Source: Patescibacteria group bacterium (lineage in GTDB: Bacteria; Patescibacteriota; UBA1384; XYA2-FULL-43-10; 1-14-0-10-43-13). Taken from it: a DNA stretch of 64,000 nt. Below are positions 14,965 through 24,288 of this stretch, piece after piece. The position numbers were made by a program, and so were the translations under genes. The notes beneath the pieces were generated by a model. That model saw nothing but the letters and a program-made list of their open reading frames with translations. It searched no databases and was not told the origin of the DNA. The DNA lies in the NCBI GenBank assembly GCA_041671645.1, contig JBAZBD010000001.1, forward strand, positions 412,890-476,889, read 5' to 3'. Numbering within the stretch: the first letter of the stretch is position 1; every line of letters begins with the position of its first letter.

Positions 14965-15249
14965 ATGAACGAAGAAAAAGAGGCGAAGGGCGAGAAGTGT
15001 TATTGTGGCTGTGGCTGTGGCAGCGACTGCAAATGTGGTTGCGGATGCGGCTGTGGAACTAGCAAGGTCAAGAAATGGCATCACGGTAGCGCAAATGGCG
15101 GTGGTATCTACTGTCTTGGTATGATCGGTGTGGCAATATATTACATCCAGCAAGTAGACGGTTTTGGACCGATTATTGTCGCTATTCTGAAAGCTATCGT
15201 CTGGCCAGCGTATTTGCTCTACAAAGTTTTCACTATGTTGCACATGTAG
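14965..15249 (+). CDS. Small Cys-rich (metallothionein-like CxC repeat) protein with a C-terminal TM helix
   Basis: 94 aa; CYCGCGCGSDCKCGCGCGCG (10 Cys in 20 residues), then the hydrophobic helix IYCLGMIGVAIYY...IVAILKAIVW. Confidence 0.5.
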   Translation: MNEEKEAKGEKCYCGCGCGSDCKCGCGCGCGTSKVKKWHHGSANGGGIYCLGMIGVAIYYIQQVDGFGPIIVAILKAIVWPAYLLYKVFTMLHM

Positions 15250-15380: not shown

Positions 15381-15935
15381 ATGTTCAAAAAGATATTGAT
15401 TGTCGACAATAATTCGAAACATACGGCCAAAATTGCCAAGCTTTTCTCTGGCGACGAGATTAGTATTTGTAAGTGTGAGGATTTCGAGTCAGATAAGGCC
15501 GAAACATTTGATTTGGTGGTTCTCTCGGGGGGAAGTCACACCTACGCCGCCGATAATGAAAAAAATGCATATTCCGCCGAAATAGAATTTATCAAACAAA
15601 CAAAGAAGCCGCTCATTGGCATATGTCTGGGCTGCCAACTGATCGCCAAGGCATTCGGTGGTAAACTCACAAAGCTCGCCGAGAAACAGAGTGGAATATT
15701 GGAGATCGCCAAAAGTGTGAAAAAGTATGAAGTTTTCGAATCACACAAATATGCCATCTCAGAGATGCCAGATGAGCTAGAAACCCTTGCCGAGTCCGAG
15801 ACCGGGCCAGAAATTATCAGACATCGGGCGAGACCAACCTTCGGCTTTCAATTCCACCCCGAAGTATTCCCGCGAAAAACCGATGGCAAGAAACTATTTG
15901 ACCAAGTCATCGCTCAAGTTATCAAGTCTGCTTGA
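15381..15935 (+). CDS. Class I glutamine amidotransferase-like protein
   Basis: 184 aa; nucleophile elbow GICLGCQL; FQFHPE near the C-terminus (catalytic His/Glu region). Confidence 0.7.
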   Translation: MFKKILIVDNNSKHTAKIAKLFSGDEISICKCEDFESDKAETFDLVVLSGGSHTYAADNEKNAYSAEIEFIKQTKKPLIGICLGCQLIAKAFGGKLTKLAEKQSGILEIAKSVKKYEVFESHKYAISEMPDELETLAESETGPEIIRHRARPTFGFQFHPEVFPRKTDGKKLFDQVIAQVIKSA

Positions 15936-15985
15936 AGCGAAATTAAATTAAGCATAATATTTAGTCAAATTTAATCAGGAGAAAG

Positions 15986-16738
15986 ATGGAGCCTACATAT
16001 AATTCAGCAGCAGAATCAGAGAATGAAGAGCAAGCCGTTGATTTTAACAAGTTATTTCTTGCTCAGCTTGGATCAATGCCGCAGAAAACTGGGGAAGACG
16101 CCGAGCACGAAGCTTACCATCTAGGAAATATTGGAATTAGCGAAATTAGGCGTGAGGCGGTTGCAATTATCTTTCTGCTGGAAGGGTCCAAGAATCTTGA
16201 GATTTGGCTACAAGACCCCGGTAATTCCGAGAGAGCATATTGGCATAATACCGCCAGGCTAGTCCTGAAAGATTTTCTGCGTAGCAAGAATCTTAAACCA
16301 GATAGGATGACAGGTGCTTCTGTTTGTCAGGATCAGAATGATCAACTTTTCATGTTACTTAACAGCGACGATGAATTATTTGATCTTTTTTCAGATGATG
16401 CGAAGGAAGGCGACATCGGCGAAGATTGGCGAGAATTGTTCAAGCGTTACCAAATCAAGAAAGTAGTGGGTAGAGTGGCAAGCAGGACAAAGGACGGCGG
16501 TATTGATATAGAGGGAGTCGAGATAATTGATGAAGACCTAATGGGCAACAGACGGGAGGAAGGCTTCCTAAGAGATTTGGCGAAAGAGTATGAAATGACT
16601 ACTACGCAGTACCTACGCTTCAGAACTATTGTAAAATCTGCGGAGGCCAAGGATTCGGATCACCCTGGCACTGCGATCCAGTATCACGATCTAGCCAAGA
16701 AAATTGTTGCAGGGGATGATAGCATTTTGGTGAAATAA
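15986..16738 (+). CDS. Hypothetical acidic protein
   Basis: 250-aa ORF; no motif recognised. Confidence 0.4.
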   Translation: MEPTYNSAAESENEEQAVDFNKLFLAQLGSMPQKTGEDAEHEAYHLGNIGISEIRREAVAIIFLLEGSKNLEIWLQDPGNSERAYWHNTARLVLKDFLRSKNLKPDRMTGASVCQDQNDQLFMLLNSDDELFDLFSDDAKEGDIGEDWRELFKRYQIKKVVGRVASRTKDGGIDIEGVEIIDEDLMGNRREEGFLRDLAKEYEMTTTQYLRFRTIVKSAEAKDSDHPGTAIQYHDLAKKIVAGDDSILVK

Positions 16739-16756
16739 CTAAAGTTAGGATCTTTC

Positions 16757-17065
16757 ATGGAAAAATTGAATAAAAATGGGTTTCTAAACGCTTTTGGTAT
16801 CCTGGTCTATGTTGTGCTGGTCGCGACGCTAATGCAAAACGGCGACCGACTCTTTGGTCAGGCAGACAATTTTGTTAGTCCGATTGCCTTTCTCCTTTTG
16901 TTTTCGCTGTCGGCCACTATTGTGGGTGGGTTAATGCTTGGTAAACCATTGATGCTGTATTTCGACGGCAAGAAGAAAGAGGCGGTTTCGTTGTTCTTGG
17001 CCACATCAGGATGGCTTGCCGGTTTTACAATATTGGCATTTTTTGTAATTTTCTTGATCAAATAA
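16757..17065 (+). CDS. Small integral membrane protein
   Basis: 102 aa; 2-3 predicted TM helices. Confidence 0.4.
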   Translation: MEKLNKNGFLNAFGILVYVVLVATLMQNGDRLFGQADNFVSPIAFLLLFSLSATIVGGLMLGKPLMLYFDGKKKEAVSLFLATSGWLAGFTILAFFVIFLIK

Positions 17066-17081
17066 TTGAAAAAATTAGAGT

Positions 17082-17663
17082 ATGAAAAAAAATTGCATTA
17101 TAATTCATGGCTGTCCATCAAACAGAGAAAAAGCGATGGATCCAGCGACCAGAACCTATGACAAACATTGGATTCCTTGGGCCAAGAACGAACTAATTAA
17201 ATCGGGTATCAGTACCCTGACGCCTTACATGCCAGATCCGTGGGAACCTGTGTATGAGAAATTCAAAAAGGAATTTGAGAAATACGAAGTGAATGAAGGC
17301 ACAATATTGATCGGTCATAGTTGCGGATGTACTTTTCTAGTACGCTGGCTGGGCGAGACAAAAAGAAAAATCCACAAATTAATTTTAGTCGTGCCATGGA
17401 AGATCGCAGAGGGATCGCCAAAATCTGAAATGGACTTTTATAAATTCCCGATTGACGGGACTATCGGCCGCAGAGTTGATCAGATTACAATATTTACATC
17501 GGACAACGACGAGGAGGGTGGCAAGAGAGGCGCGGTAATGTTTCATGAAGCCTTGGGCGGAGACATTATTAGTTTGCCGGGCCATGGCCATTATGTCTTG
17601 GACGATATGGGAACCGAAGAATTCCCAGAATTGATAGATATAATTATCAAGGATAAAATTTGA
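17082..17663 (+). CDS. Alpha/beta hydrolase, RBBP9/YdeN-like serine hydrolase
   Basis: 193 aa; IIHG...S; nucleophile motif GHSCG; C-terminal GHGHY; size and motif order as in PF06821-type hydrolases. Confidence 0.6.
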   Translation: MKKNCIIIHGCPSNREKAMDPATRTYDKHWIPWAKNELIKSGISTLTPYMPDPWEPVYEKFKKEFEKYEVNEGTILIGHSCGCTFLVRWLGETKRKIHKLILVVPWKIAEGSPKSEMDFYKFPIDGTIGRRVDQITIFTSDNDEEGGKRGAVMFHEALGGDIISLPGHGHYVLDDMGTEEFPELIDIIIKDKI

Positions 17664-18007
17664 GTATGAAAAAAAAGTTTATAATTATTTTGCATCTATT
17701 TGTCATGACTCTGGCCTACACCTCGCCATTTTGGCTAGATTGGCGTTTGATAATTGTCGGGCTCCTCTTATACTATTTGCAGATTTGGATTTTCGGCGGT
17801 TGCATCCTAACTTATGCCCAACACGGCCGATGGGACGAAACTTTTAGCGGGCAATCAATCGTATGGTTGGCTTCCAAATTCGGAATGAAATTTAGAATGA
17901 AAGCAGTCAAGAAGTTTTTGAGCGTTCTACCGCCAATATTTATAGCAATAGCCATCGTCTACCAAATACTGTTTCACGGCTCCGTTTTGGTATTATTTAA
18001 TTCTTAA
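17660..18007 (+). CDS. Small integral membrane protein
   Basis: 115 aa; three hydrophobic helices; overlaps neighbouring genes by 4 nt (operon). Confidence 0.4.
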   Translation: MSMKKKFIIILHLFVMTLAYTSPFWLDWRLIIVGLLLYYLQIWIFGGCILTYAQHGRWDETFSGQSIVWLASKFGMKFRMKAVKKFLSVLPPIFIAIAIVYQILFHGSVLVLFNS

Positions 18008-18598
18008 TTGCTGGGGGAAGGTCTAACCATGGAGAATAAATTTGAGAAAATCTGGGATTTGGCCATGCCTTACCTCAAGAAGGGCATTATGAAGGATTTT
18101 GTTTCTCACACTAAGTATGTCGTAAAGTCGATGGAGATGATTATTGACGGCGAAGGCGGGGACGAGGATATATTAATTCCCTCTGCCATACTTCATGATG
18201 TCGGCTGGTCGAAAGTTGATCCATCTCTGCAATTAAATGACGACATGGAAAAGAAGCGTGAGGGCCAGAGGCAACATATCACTTTCGCCAAGGAAATTGT
18301 CGAGGAGGTTTTGGACCAAGCAGGTTATTCCGAAGAAGATATTCAAAAAGTTGTGGGGATAGTCATGGCTCACAAATTCCAAGACCCAGAAGACAAAGAG
18401 AAGCAGATGTTGATCGATGCAGACAACCTCTCCGACACTTTCAAGGAGCAGTTTGACTCTGATGTTGTCGCTTATCATTCAACGCCTGAGCAAGTTTATG
18501 AATATAGAATGAATAATAAATATTACACGCAAACCGCCCAGCAAATCGCAGATCAACAAATGGCAAAACTAAAAGCTGAAATTAAAGATAAGATTTGA
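18008..18598 (+). CDS. HD-domain phosphohydrolase
   Basis: H...HD (AILHDVGW) and a downstream D (IDADNL) in HD superfamily spacing; start adjacent to the preceding stop. Confidence 0.6.
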   Translation: MLGEGLTMENKFEKIWDLAMPYLKKGIMKDFVSHTKYVVKSMEMIIDGEGGDEDILIPSAILHDVGWSKVDPSLQLNDDMEKKREGQRQHITFAKEIVEEVLDQAGYSEEDIQKVVGIVMAHKFQDPEDKEKQMLIDADNLSDTFKEQFDSDVVAYHSTPEQVYEYRMNNKYYTQTAQQIADQQMAKLKAEIKDKI

Positions 18599-19083
18599 GT
18601 ATGAATACAAAAAAAGAAGAAACATATTTAGACAGAAATGGTGATCCACACCAGAAGCCGACCGACATGGAGGTGTTGCATCGCGATTCTGCTTATGGGA
18701 TAGCTCTGAATGATGGTAGAGTCCTCCTCGTTAAATCACCCGACTTTGGCTTTTGGGTAATCCCTGGCGGAGGAGTCGAAGAGGGAGAGACGCTAGAAGA
18801 TGGACTGAGGAGAGAATTTTTAGAAGAAACTGGTTTTCTGATTGACGAGATTGGAGAATTGTTCTTTTCTGAGCGGCTAAGCTTTTATCATCAGAAATTG
18901 GATTCGTATTATGATTCGCACTGCAAATATTTCTTGGTTACGATGAAAAACGAGACACAAGATCTTGCTAAACTTAACCCTGAAGATGCGGGCGAAATTC
19001 GCTGGTTCGATTTATCGGGTTTTGATCTACGCATCTTGAATCACGCCAGCAGGAGAGCAGTAGAACTATTAATTAAGAATTAG
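18595..19083 (+). CDS. NUDIX hydrolase
   Basis: Nudix box GGGVEEGETLEDGLRREFLEETG. Confidence 0.8.
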   Translation: MSMNTKKEETYLDRNGDPHQKPTDMEVLHRDSAYGIALNDGRVLLVKSPDFGFWVIPGGGVEEGETLEDGLRREFLEETGFLIDEIGELFFSERLSFYHQKLDSYYDSHCKYFLVTMKNETQDLAKLNPEDAGEIRWFDLSGFDLRILNHASRRAVELLIKN

Positions 19084-19085
19084 AT

Positions 19086-19694
19086 TTGAATATGAAAATA
19101 TTTTTAACATCACATGCGGGGAGAGTGATTGATCGAATCATCCCCAAATTGCCCAAAAAACCAGAGGAACTGAAGGCACTTTTCATTACGACCGCTGGCA
19201 ATCCTTACACTGACATACATTGGATTGATGAGGACAGAGAGAATCTCACAAAAGCAGGGTTTGCGTTGACTGATTATGATTTGGTAGACAAAAACGAGGA
19301 CGAAGTCAGAAATGTTGTCGATGACAGCGATGTAATATTCGTCGAGGGTGGCAATACCTTCTTTCTGTTGAAATACGCGAGAGAAAGCGGCTTTGACAAA
19401 GTGATGAAAGAACAAAAAGACAATGACAAAGTTTTCGTCGGCGTCAGCGCAGGTGCATATATAGCGACTCCGTCAGTAGAGCCAACTGAGTGGAAAAGAG
19501 AGAAGAATCATTACGGCATTACTGATTTGTCGGGCTTCAATCTTGTGCCGTTTGTGGTTTTCGCGCACTATACGGACGAGTATCATGATATGATCGAAAT
19601 GAAGAGAAAAGAACTGACATACGATCTGGTCACGATCAGAGATGACGAAGTCATCGAGGCGACGGAAAATGGTGCAGAGAAGCTGGGATTATAA
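19086..19694 (+). CDS. Peptidase S51 (dipeptidase E/cyanophycinase-like) family protein
   Basis: 202 aa; FVEGGNTF and VGVSAG (Ser nucleophile) blocks typical of S51. Confidence 0.6.
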   Translation: MNMKIFLTSHAGRVIDRIIPKLPKKPEELKALFITTAGNPYTDIHWIDEDRENLTKAGFALTDYDLVDKNEDEVRNVVDDSDVIFVEGGNTFFLLKYARESGFDKVMKEQKDNDKVFVGVSAGAYIATPSVEPTEWKREKNHYGITDLSGFNLVPFVVFAHYTDEYHDMIEMKRKELTYDLVTIRDDEVIEATENGAEKLGL

Positions 19695-19716
19695 ATAATT
19701 AGAGTAAGATTCGATT

Positions 19717-20457
19717 ATGGAAAAAGAGCAAAAGTATCAAGATTTATTAAAAGAAGCCAAAGCCGATTCAAGCATTGTTGGTTTTATCTTGGCTGCGGGT
19801 CGAGGGAAGGGTGTTTTCACTGAAAAATCCGATTATGATGTTTTTATCATTATTCGTGACGAAGTTGCCGATGAGTACATACATAAGTTTGATCAGATTA
19901 AGGATCCAAATACTCTAGACATCAATGCCATGTCTCTATCGAGTTTTGAAAAATATGCCGAGTTGGGAACGCCCTCTGAGTGGGATAGATACAATTTTTC
20001 ACATCTCAAAGCAGAAGTTGATAAACTTGACGGCGGAATTAAAAAGCTGATTGACAGGAAAGGTTCTCTTTCGGACACAGAAATACGGGGTATCGTCAGT
20101 GCTAATTTGGACGGGTATATCAATAGCTACTATAGATCAATCAAAAATGATCGTGACGGCGATACTCTGTCTTCAAGGCTGGACGCCTCGGAGTCGGTGC
20201 CTTTGCTTTTGACCGCTCTGTTCGCATTGCACGGAAGGATAAAGCCGTATAATAAATTTCTCAAATCGGAGCTGGAAAATTTTCCGCTGGAAAAACTTCC
20301 TTGGGACAGTGGCGAGTTTATGGCGCTCGTTTTGCAAATAATTTCGACGGGAAACGTCGAGGTTCAAAAACAAGTATTTCAAAAAATCTCTGAGCTGTTT
20401 CGATCCAATGGTTACGATGGTGTAATCACTGGCTGGGACGGGTATTGGTTGGGATAA
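19717..20457 (+). CDS. Pol-beta-superfamily nucleotidyltransferase (ANT/Lnu-like fold)
   Basis: GFILAAGRGKG...SDYDVFIII (G[SG]-x9-13-DxD NTase signature); 246 aa. Confidence 0.5.
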   Translation: MEKEQKYQDLLKEAKADSSIVGFILAAGRGKGVFTEKSDYDVFIIIRDEVADEYIHKFDQIKDPNTLDINAMSLSSFEKYAELGTPSEWDRYNFSHLKAEVDKLDGGIKKLIDRKGSLSDTEIRGIVSANLDGYINSYYRSIKNDRDGDTLSSRLDASESVPLLLTALFALHGRIKPYNKFLKSELENFPLEKLPWDSGEFMALVLQIISTGNVEVQKQVFQKISELFRSNGYDGVITGWDGYWLG

Positions 20458-20467
20458 GGATTTTACT

Positions 20468-21298
20468 ATGAAACAGAAAATTTTGGTTACAGGGGCTAGC
20501 GGGTATGTCGGGGCGCGAATTTACTCTGACTTAAAGAGCGATTTTGATGTTGTCGGCGTTTACAATAGGACGAAACTATTTCCAGAATTAGAACAGCTTG
20601 ATATCACCGATCTATCGGCAACATTAGCAAAAGTTGAGCAGATCAAGCCTGATTGGATTGTGCATATCGCTGCCGATCCAAATCATACATCTTGCGAAGC
20701 TGACCCCGAAAAGGCGATCAAGCTCAACGAAGGTGGCACCAATAATATCGCCGAAGCCGCCAACAAAACTGGCGCCAAGGTAGTCTACATTTCCTCTGTT
20801 GCCGCGATGACAGGCGTCGATCTATATGGCAAGACCAAGCGTCATGGCGAGAAGTTTATCGAAGACGTGAAGGCTGGCTGGGCAATATTGCGTCCGTCTC
20901 TGATTGTCGGATTTAGCCCCAACACCACCAACGATCGGCCTTTCAATCGATTCCTCAAAGCGCTTGCGGGAGAAGCTCCGGCTGTTTATGATAATTCCTG
21001 GAAATTCCAGCCAAGCTATCTCGGACATATTTCCGAAGTGATCGCACAGATTATCAAGCGAAATATTACTGGCGAAATAATTCCGATCACTATACCGCAC
21101 CTGACTACTCGCTATGATCTGGCCAAAGATATCCTGATCCCCTTTGGCGTCGAAGTCTCGTCCAAAGACGCAGGGGATACCACGCCAGTCGTGGAGTTTG
21201 ACCAAGCAGAGCTCAAAAAGCTCGGCTTGCCAGTCTATACTTATGATGAAATGATTAGTAGAATAGTTATAGAAACAAAGAAGGGTTTGGAGATCTAG
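20468..21298 (+). CDS. NAD(P)-dependent epimerase/dehydratase (SDR Rossmann)
   Basis: ILVTGASGYVGARI glycine-rich NAD-binding motif; 276 aa. Confidence 0.65.
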   Translation: MKQKILVTGASGYVGARIYSDLKSDFDVVGVYNRTKLFPELEQLDITDLSATLAKVEQIKPDWIVHIAADPNHTSCEADPEKAIKLNEGGTNNIAEAANKTGAKVVYISSVAAMTGVDLYGKTKRHGEKFIEDVKAGWAILRPSLIVGFSPNTTNDRPFNRFLKALAGEAPAVYDNSWKFQPSYLGHISEVIAQIIKRNITGEIIPITIPHLTTRYDLAKDILIPFGVEVSSKDAGDTTPVVEFDQAELKKLGLPVYTYDEMISRIVIETKKGLEI

Positions 21299-21300
21299 GC

Positions 21301-22464
21301 TTGATCGGCATCGGAAGGGGATCCTCGCGCAACTATTTATTATTCAAGAAAGACTTTGCAATGGCGTGGACTGAAATAAAATATAGCAAAAATTTAGTAA
21401 ATCGAGCAGGAGATACTCTCATTAGCCAAGGATCTTCAACAGATGAGATTAACGAGGCGCTAATGGTTCTTGACAACTGGCGCTCTGCCCATAGCTTTCC
21501 CTTGCATATTTTTAAAAAGAGATTAAAGGTTGTTTCTAGCGCGGTTGATGACACCTCTTTAGTCGTTCAAAGGCTTAAGCGCAGCCCAGCCATCCTCAGA
21601 AAATTGCAGAGAAGATATGGAGAGCTATCTCCGACAATGAAACTATCCCAAATGCAGGATATCGGAGGATGCAGGGCCGTACTAGCGAATGTAAAACTGG
21701 TTAATAAGATTTGTAGCGAATACTATCATACTGATAAAGCAAATCGTGGCGAGCATTGTGATTTAAAGCACCAATTCAAAAATAAAAAGGATTATATCAA
21801 CAATCCTAAGGATGACGGCTACAGGGGTGTTCATCTGATTTATAAATATATAAGTGATAAGTCCAATAAATATAATGGGTTGCTTATTGAAATTCAGGTT
21901 AGGTCTAAGCTCCAGCATCTCTGGGCAACTGCAGTAGAGACAGTCGGCCATTTTACAAAGCAGGCGCTAAAGTCAAATGAGGGAGAAGAGGACTGGATTA
22001 CCTTCTTTAAACTTGTAAGTTCAGTGTTCGCTCAGAAGGAGAAAACACCCCCTGTTCCAGATACACCCATTGATGGCTCTGAATTGTTTCGACAGGTTGA
22101 GAAATTATCGAACAAACTTCAGGTTGTAGAGAAAATAAAAAGCTGGGCTGAATCGTTAAGGCAAATGGAGCAGATTGAGCAGAACGAGCCGCACAAACCA
22201 CATTTTTATCTTCTGGAATTGGATATCGATACCAGGAGATTAGCAATACGGGCGTTTGATAAGAAAGATGAGGAGACGGCAAATCAAATGTATTCTGCGG
22301 CAGAAAAAAGGGCTAGCGAAGCGAAGGCAAACAGAGATATTGTGCTAGTTGAAGCTGATACAACAAAAGAACTCCAAAGGGCCTATCCAAATTATTTTTT
22401 GGATACAAAAGAATTTATTCAAGAACTTGAGAATTATTTAAATAATGCCGAAGGTATTAAATAA
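21301..22464 (+). CDS. RelA/SpoT-domain nucleotide pyrophosphokinase (standalone synthetase domain with ~85-aa N-terminal and ~170-aa C-terminal extensions)
   Basis: Synthetase motifs in order: RLKRSPAILRKLQRR (Syn1), DIGGCRAV (Syn2 Mg-binding Asp), GYRGVHLIY (Syn3), EIQVRSKLQHLWA (Syn4 catalytic Glu). An alternative start is MAWTEIKY at 21361. Confidence 0.7.
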   Translation: MIGIGRGSSRNYLLFKKDFAMAWTEIKYSKNLVNRAGDTLISQGSSTDEINEALMVLDNWRSAHSFPLHIFKKRLKVVSSAVDDTSLVVQRLKRSPAILRKLQRRYGELSPTMKLSQMQDIGGCRAVLANVKLVNKICSEYYHTDKANRGEHCDLKHQFKNKKDYINNPKDDGYRGVHLIYKYISDKSNKYNGLLIEIQVRSKLQHLWATAVETVGHFTKQALKSNEGEEDWITFFKLVSSVFAQKEKTPPVPDTPIDGSELFRQVEKLSNKLQVVEKIKSWAESLRQMEQIEQNEPHKPHFYLLELDIDTRRLAIRAFDKKDEETANQMYSAAEKRASEAKANRDIVLVEADTTKELQRAYPNYFLDTKEFIQELENYLNNAEGIK

Positions 22465-22503: not shown

Positions 22504-22812
22504 ATGCAACTAAATTATTTGATCGCTGGACTCGTAATTGGCCTATTGGTAGGGTGGTTCTTTCGGAAGCCCAAAGGGAAAGCTCGGGAGAACGTTAGAT
22601 TGTCGGAAGCGGAGAGGGAGAAGGCGGGGAATATTGAGAAAATTAATTCCTACATCTCTAGCCACTCCAGCGTTACCAACGCAGAAATTGCCAAGCTTCT
22701 CGGCGTTTCGGACGCGACTGTGGTCCGTTATATGGACGAACTAGAGGCGAGTGGAGCGGTCAGACAGATCGGCAAGACCGGCATCGATGCTCATTACGAA
22801 AAAGTAAATTAA
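22504..22812 (+). CDS. Membrane-anchored winged-helix DNA-binding protein
   Basis: 102 aa; N-terminal TM (LIAGLVIGLLVGWFF); C-terminal HTH TNAEIAKLLGVSDATVVRYMDELEASGAV. Confidence 0.5.
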   Translation: MQLNYLIAGLVIGLLVGWFFRKPKGKARENVRLSEAEREKAGNIEKINSYISSHSSVTNAEIAKLLGVSDATVVRYMDELEASGAVRQIGKTGIDAHYEKVN

Positions 22813-22835
22813 CATCTCTAGCACTGCATAAATCG

Positions 22836-22880
22836 AACACCTCACATATGTGAGGTGTTTGTGTCTCTTCTGATTTTTTC
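22836..22880 (+). terminator. Perfect 24-bp palindrome AACACCTCACATATGTGAGGTGTT plus T-rich tail
   Basis: Hairpin followed by TGTGTCTCTTCTGATTTTTT; the same palindrome recurs at 46285. Confidence 0.55.
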
Positions 22881-23760: not shown

Positions 23761-24288
23761 ATGAAGTTATCCAAGAATGTCAAAGCAATTTTGAGTACTA
23801 TTGGCTTGGGGCTGGCGCTTACAGTCGCGTCCACCTCGCCATATTTTTTGGTCAATTTAGTCAAATCAAAGAACAAATACGAGAAATATCGCTACAAGAA
23901 AATCATCAAAAAATTGTTTGACGACAAGATCATTTATCTTTCGGGGGAGGAAATAAAGTTGTCCGAAAATGGTCTCGAACTGCTGAGGCTTGCGCAGGTC
24001 GAGGATATCACTATCGCCAAGGGCAAAGGCGAATGGGATGGTTTTTGGCACCTGGTCTGCTATGACGTGCCGGAATCATACAAGCAGAGGAGGGATTGTT
24101 TCCGCCGAAAACTTATTGAATCAGGATTTTACCAAGTTCAGTACAGTCTGTGGGTAATTCCGTGGCCATGCAAAGAGGAGATTGCGATTATTGCGCAAAG
24201 TCTCGACATTGCGCCCTTTGTTGCCTATCTCAATACCGATTATCTGCCCCAACAACAAAAGCTCCTGAACCATTTCGATCTCGCATAA
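23761..24288 (+). CDS. PaaX-like domain protein (putative transcriptional regulator) with an N-terminal hydrophobic anchor
   Basis: WDGFWHLVCYDVPESYKQRRDCFRRKLIESGFYQVQYSLWVIPWP matches the PaaX middle-domain signature (W-x-G-x-WHLV-x-Y..P...R...R..L...GF......W). It has a preceding wHTH-like region (LSENGLELLRLAQ) and an N-terminal TM/signal. Confidence 0.5.
   Translation: MKLSKNVKAILSTIGLGLALTVASTSPYFLVNLVKSKNKYEKYRYKKIIKKLFDDKIIYLSGEEIKLSENGLELLRLAQVEDITIAKGKGEWDGFWHLVCYDVPESYKQRRDCFRRKLIESGFYQVQYSLWVIPWPCKEEIAIIAQSLDIAPFVAYLNTDYLPQQQKLLNHFDLA

Follow-up and report, generated by a model that had tools for sequence, protein, structure and literature searches.

What does a RelA/SpoT-type synthetase do when its catalytic core makes up only about a third of the protein that carries it? 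The question is raised by an open reading frame (ORF) at positions 21301..22464 of the plus strand in a 64,000-nucleotide stretch of the genome of a Patescibacteria group bacterium (contig JBAZBD010000001.1, positions 412,890 to 476,889; the whole of this stretch is called the window here), which could encode either an ordinary small alarmone synthetase (SAS) or a toxic SAS (toxSAS) fused to its own antitoxin. Judged by its sequence and by a structural model, the gene, whose coding sequence we place at 21361..22464, probably encodes a single-polypeptide toxin-antitoxin of the CapRel type, with a mechanism that would follow, by homology, that of CapRelSJ46. The latter is the fused toxSAS toxin-antitoxin of the Salmonella temperate phage SJ46, where it serves as an antiphage sensor (PDB 7ZTB and 9ERV; Zhang et al., Nature 2022, PMC9712102; Nature 2024, PMC11578894).

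Full-length homology to CapRelSJ46

The window protein is homologous to CapRelSJ46 from end to end. In a phmmer search of PDB sequences, chains 7ztb_A/9erv_A are matched at E 1.6e-37 in one colinear alignment that joins residues 24-380 of the query (387-aa numbering) to residues 11-370 of the chain, and the two proteins are about 32% identical in a MAFFT alignment. The C-terminal 166 aa, searched alone, have 7ztb as their best match (E 1.2e-4). Among the PADLOC models, PDC-S33 matches the window protein at E 2.8e-119 over 343 of 349 model positions, and CapRelSJ46, with a query sequence rebuilt from the phmmer alignment, matches PDC-S33 as its single PADLOC model (E 9e-87); because both proteins match it, we take PDC-S33 to be the CapRel family. 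The PHROG profile phrog_4773 likewise matches the window protein over its full length (E 8.5e-98). PDC-S33 and phrog_4773, both of which cover the protein end to end, are unnamed computational families (of 'unknown function' in PHROGs) that provide a link to defence and phage contexts and no further mechanism. The suggestion of the original prediction that this is a fused, CapRel-like toxSAS is therefore borne out by the full-length homology, by the profile hidden Markov model (HMM) PDC-S33 that the two proteins share, and by the best matches of the structural model described below, which are 7ZTB and 9ERV.

A housekeeping SAS of the RelQ/RelP type, which would make (p)ppGpp for a stringent-type response of a reduced genome and whose C-terminal region would be an ordinary regulatory domain, is a very improbable alternative. 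The protein does have a RelA_SpoT domain with all of the catalytic motifs, YjbM/YwaC (RelQ/RelP) entries of both NCBIfam and the PDB match it weakly, and in its motifs and in the fold of its catalytic part it resembles these enzymes (Foldseek E about 1e-8, TM-score to target 0.6-0.76, ~190-220 columns). However, its score against the NCBIfam YjbM equivalog NF053588 is 46.5 bits against a cutoff of 320 bits, and a score so far below the cutoff places it outside the RelQ-type housekeeping enzymes. All the other solved RelA/SpoT homologue (RSH) enzymes (RelQ/RelP, YjbM/YwaC) are matched by phmmer over roughly 125 residues only, with E-values between 1e-6 and 1e-8, as compared with E 1e-37 over the full length for CapRel. 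RelQ and RelP are also single-domain proteins of about 210-230 aa that lack the 170-aa C-terminal module, whereas the window protein has 367 aa, and the autoinhibitory C-terminal YXXY module is specific to CapRel. An ordinary RelQ/RelP-like SAS, the outcome that the original prediction had set against its own proposal, was thus not what the YjbM score and the ~190-220 structurally matched columns of RelQ/RelP indicated.

The ORF and its synthetase motifs are present as first described, both in the six-frame listing and by Pfam, and the ORF is intact, with 387 aa counted from a TTG codon. This length was, though, in need of correction. A public protein of 367 aa that is 100% identical to the window protein (P0001, annotated as 'MAG: RelA/SpoT domain-containing protein [Patescibacteria group bacterium]', where MAG stands for metagenome-assembled genome) begins at the ATG at 21361, which lies in the context 'gca ATG gcg tgg' and gives the N-terminus 'MAWTEIKYSK', and the N-termini of homologues coincide with this start (consensus MxWTKxKYSK in A1, an alignment of 57 sequences). 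Since the public protein and the homologues begin there, we moved the start to ATG 21361, and the TTG at 21301 is most likely merely the first possible start; the 60 nucleotides between them fall within a 62-nt gap 3' of the upstream epimerase gene. Residues are numbered here by the 367-aa protein unless the numbering of the 387-aa ORF is stated.

21301..21360 (+): in-frame extension upstream, started by TTG and probably part of the untranslated 5' region; neither the database protein nor any homologue N-terminus includes it
21361..22464 (+): most likely coding sequence of the fused CapRel-type toxSAS-antitoxin; 367 aa plus stop

Active-site residues, C-terminal fold and proposed mechanism

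The toxin domain occupies the N-terminal 200 residues of the protein and aligns with residues 11-203 of CapRelSJ46 (phmmer); it is basic (isoelectric point, pI, 9.66), and the C-terminal domain is acidic (pI 4.97). Its main features are as follows.

21361..21960 (+): toxSYNTH (toxin) domain, aa 1-200; three N-terminal helices and RelA/SpoT nucleotidyltransferase core (PF04607 and AlphaFold2)
21571..21573 (+): R71, equivalent of CapRelSJ46 R79 (adenine/ATP coordination); MAFFT mapping, conserved in 160 of 160
21658..21675 (+): DIGGCR motif, D100 to R105, with R105 equivalent to CapRelSJ46 R116; from motif and alignment
21820..21822 (+): Y154, corresponding to Tyr155, the catalytic residue in the G-loop of CapRelSJ46; conserved in 160 of 160
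21889..21903 (+): EIQVR motif (E177, Q179, R181), which in RSH synthetases is the block with the catalytic Glu; conserved in 160 of 160

Pfam RelA_SpoT (PF04607) covers residues 90-210 of the 387-aa ORF with E 1.8e-14, above its gathering score, and the ORF contains the synthetase blocks 'RLKRSPAILRKLQR', 'MQDIGGCR', 'DDGYRGVHL' and 'IEIQVRSKLQHLWAT'. The catalytic residues are all present and are 97-100% conserved in homologues, with D100, G103 and R105 carried by 'MQDIGGCRAV', E177, Q179 and R181 carried by 'LIEIQVRSKLQH', and Y154 between them; D100 is presumably the Mg2+-binding Asp, by homology with RSH synthetases. The catalytic signature blocks that had been read from the sequence (DIGGCR and EIQVRS) are accordingly found in the ORF, as is the arrangement of a short core with long flanks, the core of about 120-130 residues in Pfam agreeing with the ~130 first given. 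What does not stand is the description of these flanks as free of motifs, as both align with CapRelSJ46 over its full length, and the C-terminus carries an invariant 'AYPNYF' that includes the YXXY motif.

Functional residues of CapRelSJ46 were mapped onto the window protein in the MAFFT alignment, and conservation was assessed in 160 homologues, comprising 79 genome-derived sequences (the window protein among them), 80 from IMG/VR and CapRelSJ46. In CapRelSJ46, R79 and R116 coordinate adenine/ATP, the substitution Y155A in the G-loop abolishes defence, Y352 and Y355 form the YXXY motif, and mutating the interface residues A77, V338, L339, A341 and A351 makes the protein constitutively toxic (PMC9712102). 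Eight of these positions are conserved in the window protein, R79 as R71, R116 as R105, Y155 as Y154, V338 as V328, L339 as L329, A351 as A341, Y352 as Y342 and Y355 as Y345. Across the 160 homologues R71, R105, Y154, E177, Q179, R181 and V328 are invariant, and L329, A341, Y342, P343, N344 and Y345 are 96-99% conserved.

These residues also bear on the chemistry of the toxin. A fused toxSAS that acts by (pp)pApp synthesis and ATP depletion, in the manner of FaRel/Tas1-like enzymes, and not by tRNA modification, seems quite unlikely to us. Either mechanism is used among toxSAS enzymes according to PMC9712102 and PMC11782079, and the acceptor substrate is not fixed by sequence alone, but the closest characterised full-length relative is the tRNA pyrophosphokinase CapRelSJ46, with which the window protein has the G-loop Tyr and a basic N-domain in common. 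FaRel2 (8pu3) is, by comparison, a marginal Foldseek match to the structural model (E 6.9e-4, TM-score 0.27/0.44) and is absent among the phmmer PDB sequence matches of the window protein, and the window gene differs from the FaRel/FaRel2 type in having no conserved neighbour that could serve as a SAH- or Panacea-type antitoxin.

The AlphaFold2 model, built on alignment A1, has a mean pLDDT (predicted local distance difference test score) of 85.2 and a pTM (predicted TM-score) of 0.79, and begins with three helices followed by the mixed alpha/beta synthetase core. Its best Foldseek matches in the PDB are 7ztb_B, 9erv_A and 7ztb_A (E 1.9e-23 to 3.6e-22, TM-score 0.64-0.69, about 370 columns), entries described as 'Salmonella tRNA pyrophosphokinase CapRel' and 'CapRel bound to Bas11 Gp54', and RelQ/RelP structures match the N-terminal half only (about 190-220 columns); a search of BFVD gave no full-length match and was uninformative. 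Beyond the toxin domain the following features were assigned.

21961..22185 (+): linker/anchor helices, aa 201-275, joining the toxin domain to the pseudo-zinc-finger domain (pseudo-ZFD); predicted helices 210-226, 239-253, 255-267 and 270-275
22186..22356 (+): acidic pseudo-zinc-finger-like putative sensor/antitoxin domain, aa 276-332; predicted strands 282-288, 293-299 and 325-331, helix 301-320
22342..22347 (+): V328-L329, equivalent to the interface residues V338/L339 of CapRelSJ46; conserved in 160 of 160 and 159 of 160
22381..22395 (+): A341-Y342-P343-N344-Y345, the YXXY neutralisation motif (A351 and Y352..Y355 of CapRelSJ46); by alignment, 'AYPNYF' being identical
22396..22461 (+): C-terminal helix, aa 346-367, anchor-2 equivalent; predicted helix 350-365, pLDDT about 90

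In CapRelSJ46 the antitoxin is built on an antiparallel sheet of three strands, the second and third of which are separated by a helix; anchor helices flank it, and it has no zinc-finger cysteines (PMC9712102). The predicted C-terminal topology of the window protein matches this description, in that the modelled pseudo-ZFD is strand-strand-helix-strand, aa 201-275 align to about 204-280 of CapRelSJ46, and no Cys occurs in aa 201-367. The strands of the pseudo-ZFD are followed in the model by helices at 335-341, 343-346 and 350-365, of which the last aligns to CapRelSJ46 356-370 and the short helix 343-346 holds the YPNY region, modelled with a low pLDDT (64). The YPNY motif is invariant in alignment A1 and at least 96% conserved among the 160 sequences. 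A cis-acting antitoxin or sensor in the C-terminal region, as had been proposed from the sequence, is thus supported by the retrieval of 7ZTB with the C-terminal 166 aa, by the predicted pseudo-ZFD topology and by conservation of the residues that experiments on CapRelSJ46 showed to be needed for its autoinhibition.

The gene also stands alone. We compared the four genes on either side of the homologue at 80 loci, taken from species-representative genomes, and no family turned up at more than four of these loci. There is therefore no separate antitoxin, as is to be expected of a fused, single-gene toxin-antitoxin. The likeness to CapRelSJ46 accordingly extends to the length class (367 and 373 aa), to the domain order of toxSYNTH, anchor helices, pseudo-ZFD, YXXY and C-terminal helix, to the identical AYPNYF and the equivalents of R79, R116, Y155, V338, L339 and A351, and to the absence of a partner gene. 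The two proteins are only about 32% identical and differ at L280, L307, A77 and A341; the window gene lies in a Patescibacteria chromosome without prophage context between 8 and 34 kb of the window, and its product falls in a clade of its own, made up largely of DPANN archaea and of bacteria of the candidate phyla radiation (CPR), in which the sensor domain is less variable. The halves of fused CapRels are related to the two-gene PhRel/ATphRel system (gp29/gp30 of mycobacteriophage Phrann) and to bicistronic CapRel/ATcapRel (PMC9712102). Compared by description, these systems would share the toxSAS chemistry of the window protein, but in the latter toxin and antitoxin are one ORF, and none of the 80 loci has an adjacent, conserved antitoxin gene; the single split version that was found, at L163, is a frameshifted pseudogene.

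In this assignment the N-terminal toxSYNTH (aa 1-200) is a RelA/SpoT-fold pyrophosphokinase, and the C-terminal part (aa 201-367) is made up of the anchor helices, the pseudo-zinc-finger domain without cysteines and a hinge that carries YXXY. The rest of the mechanism is taken from CapRelSJ46 by homology, namely the closed state, tRNA as the substrate, a trigger of viral origin and the role in defence. At rest, the C-terminal part would be folded back, with YPNY placed between R71 and R105, where it would block the site of ATP, the pyrophosphate donor. A virus-encoded protein might then bind the pseudo-ZFD and the anchor region and keep the protein open, which would allow the toxin domain to move pyrophosphate from ATP to the 3'-CCA ends of tRNAs, and pyrophosphorylation of the tRNAs would stop translation and abort the infection.

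Distribution of the family in bacteria, archaea and viruses

The family is large. An exhaustive phmmer search of 1.84 billion 50%-cluster representatives gave 1407 cluster representatives at E<=1e-30, and among the 150 matches listed of these nearly all are about 340-375 aa long and match over their full length. Together with the PADLOC E-value of 2.8e-119, this number places the observation well outside what chance could produce. In IMG/VR, 132 contigs encode relatives with 34-50% identity, and both these contigs and the phrog_4773 match are as expected for a family often carried by prophages. A genome scan found at least 577 stretches that encode relatives of the window protein, and the best 80 of these (46-66% identity, full length) are archaeal by label in 63 cases and bacterial, mostly Patescibacteria, in the other 17. 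The archaeal labels are Woese-, Nano-, Micr-, Pace- and Aenigmatarchaeota, Nanohaloarchaea, Methanoperedens and Methanosarcinales. An archaeal setting is directly supported at three loci by ribosomal protein genes of archaeal type that lie within two to three genes of the homologue, namely the archaeal/eukaryotic-type proteins L18e and L13 (L077:2661-3507), P0 with the RL10P insertion (L081:851-1717) and archaeal-type P1 (L030:6875-7162).

In a neighbour-joining tree, drawn without support values, the window protein falls in a subclade of 11 leaves, mostly CPR, inside an 80-leaf clade with 62 archaeal leaves, and the IMG/VR sequences, which are of prophage type, lie outside this clade together with CapRelSJ46. 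The position of the CPR subclade within an archaea-dominated clade suggests cross-domain transfer. A single IMG/VR sequence, with 50% identity, does fall inside the CPR/DPANN clade (L082, IMGVR_UViG_GVMAG-S-1041346-124_000001:4508-5554); its contig is binned as a giant-virus MAG and may be either a mis-binned DPANN or CPR contig or a genuine viral carrier.

The published range of CapRel comprises Cyanobacteria, Actinobacteria, Proteobacteria, Spirochaetes, Bacteroidetes and Firmicutes (PMC9712102), and archaeal RSH enzymes have been described as few or rare, and sporadic (PMC3153485). In the literature searched, no paper paired CapRel with Patescibacteria, and CapRel and DPANN were mentioned together in one generic survey only. 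The CPR/DPANN clade is the one mildly surprising element of the analysis, since neither the published range nor the searched literature describes it. We propose, tentatively and with rather less confidence than we have in the CapRel assignment itself, that the window gene may belong to a distinct and apparently undescribed clade of fused CapRels that Patescibacteria/CPR bacteria share, at 46-66% identity, with DPANN archaea (plus some archaea labelled Methanosarcinales or Methanoperedens).

Some copies of the family have decayed. At L163:2427-3501 the gene is split into ORFs of 187 and 166 aa by a frameshift inside the EIQxR/WATAVE block, and the residue corresponding to R105 is Y; this locus was considered as a bicistronic toxin and antitoxin and was rejected as a frameshifted pseudogene on account of these two changes. 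At L162:3001-3507 an orphan gene for the C-terminal domain adjoins a gene for a DUF87/HerA-like ATPase, and a search with the C-domain for stand-alone antitoxin homologues returned mostly fragments. Decayed copies such as these (L163 and L162) are what could be cited in favour of the window gene being itself an inactive relic, whether a pseudogene or a degenerate enzyme, but its ORF is uninterrupted and every catalytic and regulatory residue is intact, and we regard such a relic as extremely improbable.

Sensor variability, genomic setting and biological meaning

Several observations weigh against the assignment of the window protein as a CapRel-type antiviral switch. Of the CapRelSJ46 interface residues, A77 is replaced by V69 and A341 by E331, both in columns that are variable in the family, and the trigger contacts L280 and L307 are replaced by P277 and R293, although the loss of these contacts is to be expected if the trigger differs. 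Hints of a closed state in the model are limited to the short helix 343-346 and to the Foldseek comparison with the open-state crystal structures (TM-score 0.64-0.69), in which the rmsd (root mean square deviation) is about 10 Å, a value that is compatible with a different (closed) arrangement of the domains in the model. Across the family as a whole no region varies more than the pseudo-ZFD (entropy 2.22, core 1.45), and the same holds for the prophage-type sequences of IMG/VR (2.26, core 1.38), but in the CPR/DPANN clade its excess over the core is modest (1.53, core 1.01), with the N-terminal helices just as variable (1.59); the arms-race signal in this clade is weaker than in prophage-type CapRels. 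A scan of about 25 ORFs between 8 and 34 kb of the window with Pfam, PADLOC and PHROG detected neither an integrase nor structural genes of phages, and no recognised defence system. Finally, we know of no virus of the host of this gene, and of no trigger.

The same region bears on whether an autoinhibited CapRel-type enzyme might here be a switch with a purpose other than antiviral defence. It could be a selfish cassette maintained by addiction, or it could respond to a cue that is not viral, such as a protein derived from a host or from the symbiosis, and so make the episymbiont dormant. Such a role would suit the lack of a defence island or prophage at 8-34 kb, the unusual conservation of the C-terminal sensor region within the CPR/DPANN clade and the concentration of that clade in ultra-small episymbiotic lineages of both domains. 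We nevertheless consider it unlikely, given that the family HMM comes from a set of phage-defence candidates and includes the experimentally antiviral CapRelSJ46, that relatives are common on viral and prophage contigs, that some homologues adjoin defence- or mobile-type genes, and that no positive evidence points to any non-viral ligand. The neighbours in question, which occur occasionally, are genes for Fic, C5 DNA methylase, KilA-N and an insertion sequence (IS) transposase. An antiviral fused toxin-antitoxin remains our preferred assignment.

Around the gene are encoded proteins of the ABC transporter, radical-SAM enzyme, GATase, HD, NUDIX, peptidase S51 and epimerase families, along with a PaaX/Cas2-like-domain protein, a low-molecular-weight (LMW) phosphatase, a glycosyl hydrolase, permeases and a two-component system. 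A chromosomal site of this kind, among small metabolic and accessory genes and without mobile-element marks, could be held to favour the housekeeping SAS discussed above, as could the comparatively good conservation of the clade. Against this, neighbourhoods are unconserved among the closest homologues and the composition of the gene is atypical: its GC content (21361..22464) is 39.7%, against 44.6 ± 2.6% in 18 other genes of the window, and its GC content at third codon positions (GC3) is 38.3%, against 48.1 ± 4.5%, which is about 2 standard deviations lower. Unconserved neighbourhoods and low GC3 therefore fit an accessory, horizontally moving gene better than a core regulator, and the low GC and GC3 are in themselves compatible with, and a hint of, horizontal acquisition.

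The gene that follows, 39 nt downstream (22504..22812, plus strand), encodes a 102-aa protein with an N-terminal transmembrane helix, a winged-helix helix-turn-helix domain (HTH_11/HTH_24) and a weak PHROG match to 'Ren-like exclusion protein'. It may be co-transcribed with the CapRel-like gene, because the only strong terminator-like hairpin (22834..22861, 12-bp stem) comes after it; a promoter scan gave 7 sites, with 4.8 ± 2.3 expected, and was thus uninformative. As a partner antitoxin or regulator this gene was rejected, since among the 80 loci it adjoins homologues in the same genome only. The HD (18008..18598) and NUDIX (18595..19083) genes were likewise rejected as alarmone hydrolase antitoxins, being generic domain matches 3 kb away and unconserved as neighbours; the HD protein has a generic PF01966 domain with 'LHDVGW' and no SpoT-type HDxxED motif.

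These two genes belong to a run of ten small same-strand genes upstream of the CapRel-like gene (15381..21298, plus strand), with elevated GC skew (0.13-0.18), which encode a GATase, unknown proteins of 250, 102 and 115 aa, a Ser hydrolase, the HD and NUDIX proteins, a peptidase S51, an unknown protein of 246 aa and the epimerase. The run has the look of a block of accessory genes; for two of the proteins that it encodes, Pfam gave no match. Further downstream, 23761..24288 (plus strand) encodes a 175-aa protein with an N-terminal hydrophobic segment and the central Cas2-like domain of PaaX (PF20803, E 6.8e-22), which gives weak Cas2 matches in PADLOC; its vicinity showed neither cas genes nor a CRISPR array. 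In addition, a 94-aa ORF at 14965..15249 (plus strand), which overlaps an antisense ORF on the minus strand, starts with a striking stretch rich in Cys and Gly (CYCGCGCGSDCKCGCGCGCG), continues with a hydrophobic segment of membrane-like character and could encode a metal-binding membrane protein.

The architecture and mechanism of fused CapRels were already solved in 2022, and the window gene leaves the known mechanism unchanged. What it offers is the replacement of the annotation 'RelA/SpoT domain-containing protein' by a specific assignment, that of a probable CapRel-type single-protein abortive-infection switch. Patescibacteria are considered sparse in defence systems, and a sensor and effector packed into one small gene would fit a genome of less than a megabase; the contig that carries the gene is 867,751 bp long. 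If the proteins of the CPR/DPANN clade are active, immunity based on toxSAS and tRNA pyrophosphorylation would operate in Archaea as well and would have crossed the domain boundary among ultra-small episymbionts, and the comparatively conserved sensor of this clade might then recognise a conserved viral component or a non-viral cue. Confirmation by experiment would thus extend toxSAS immunity to Archaea and would document cross-domain exchange between CPR and DPANN.

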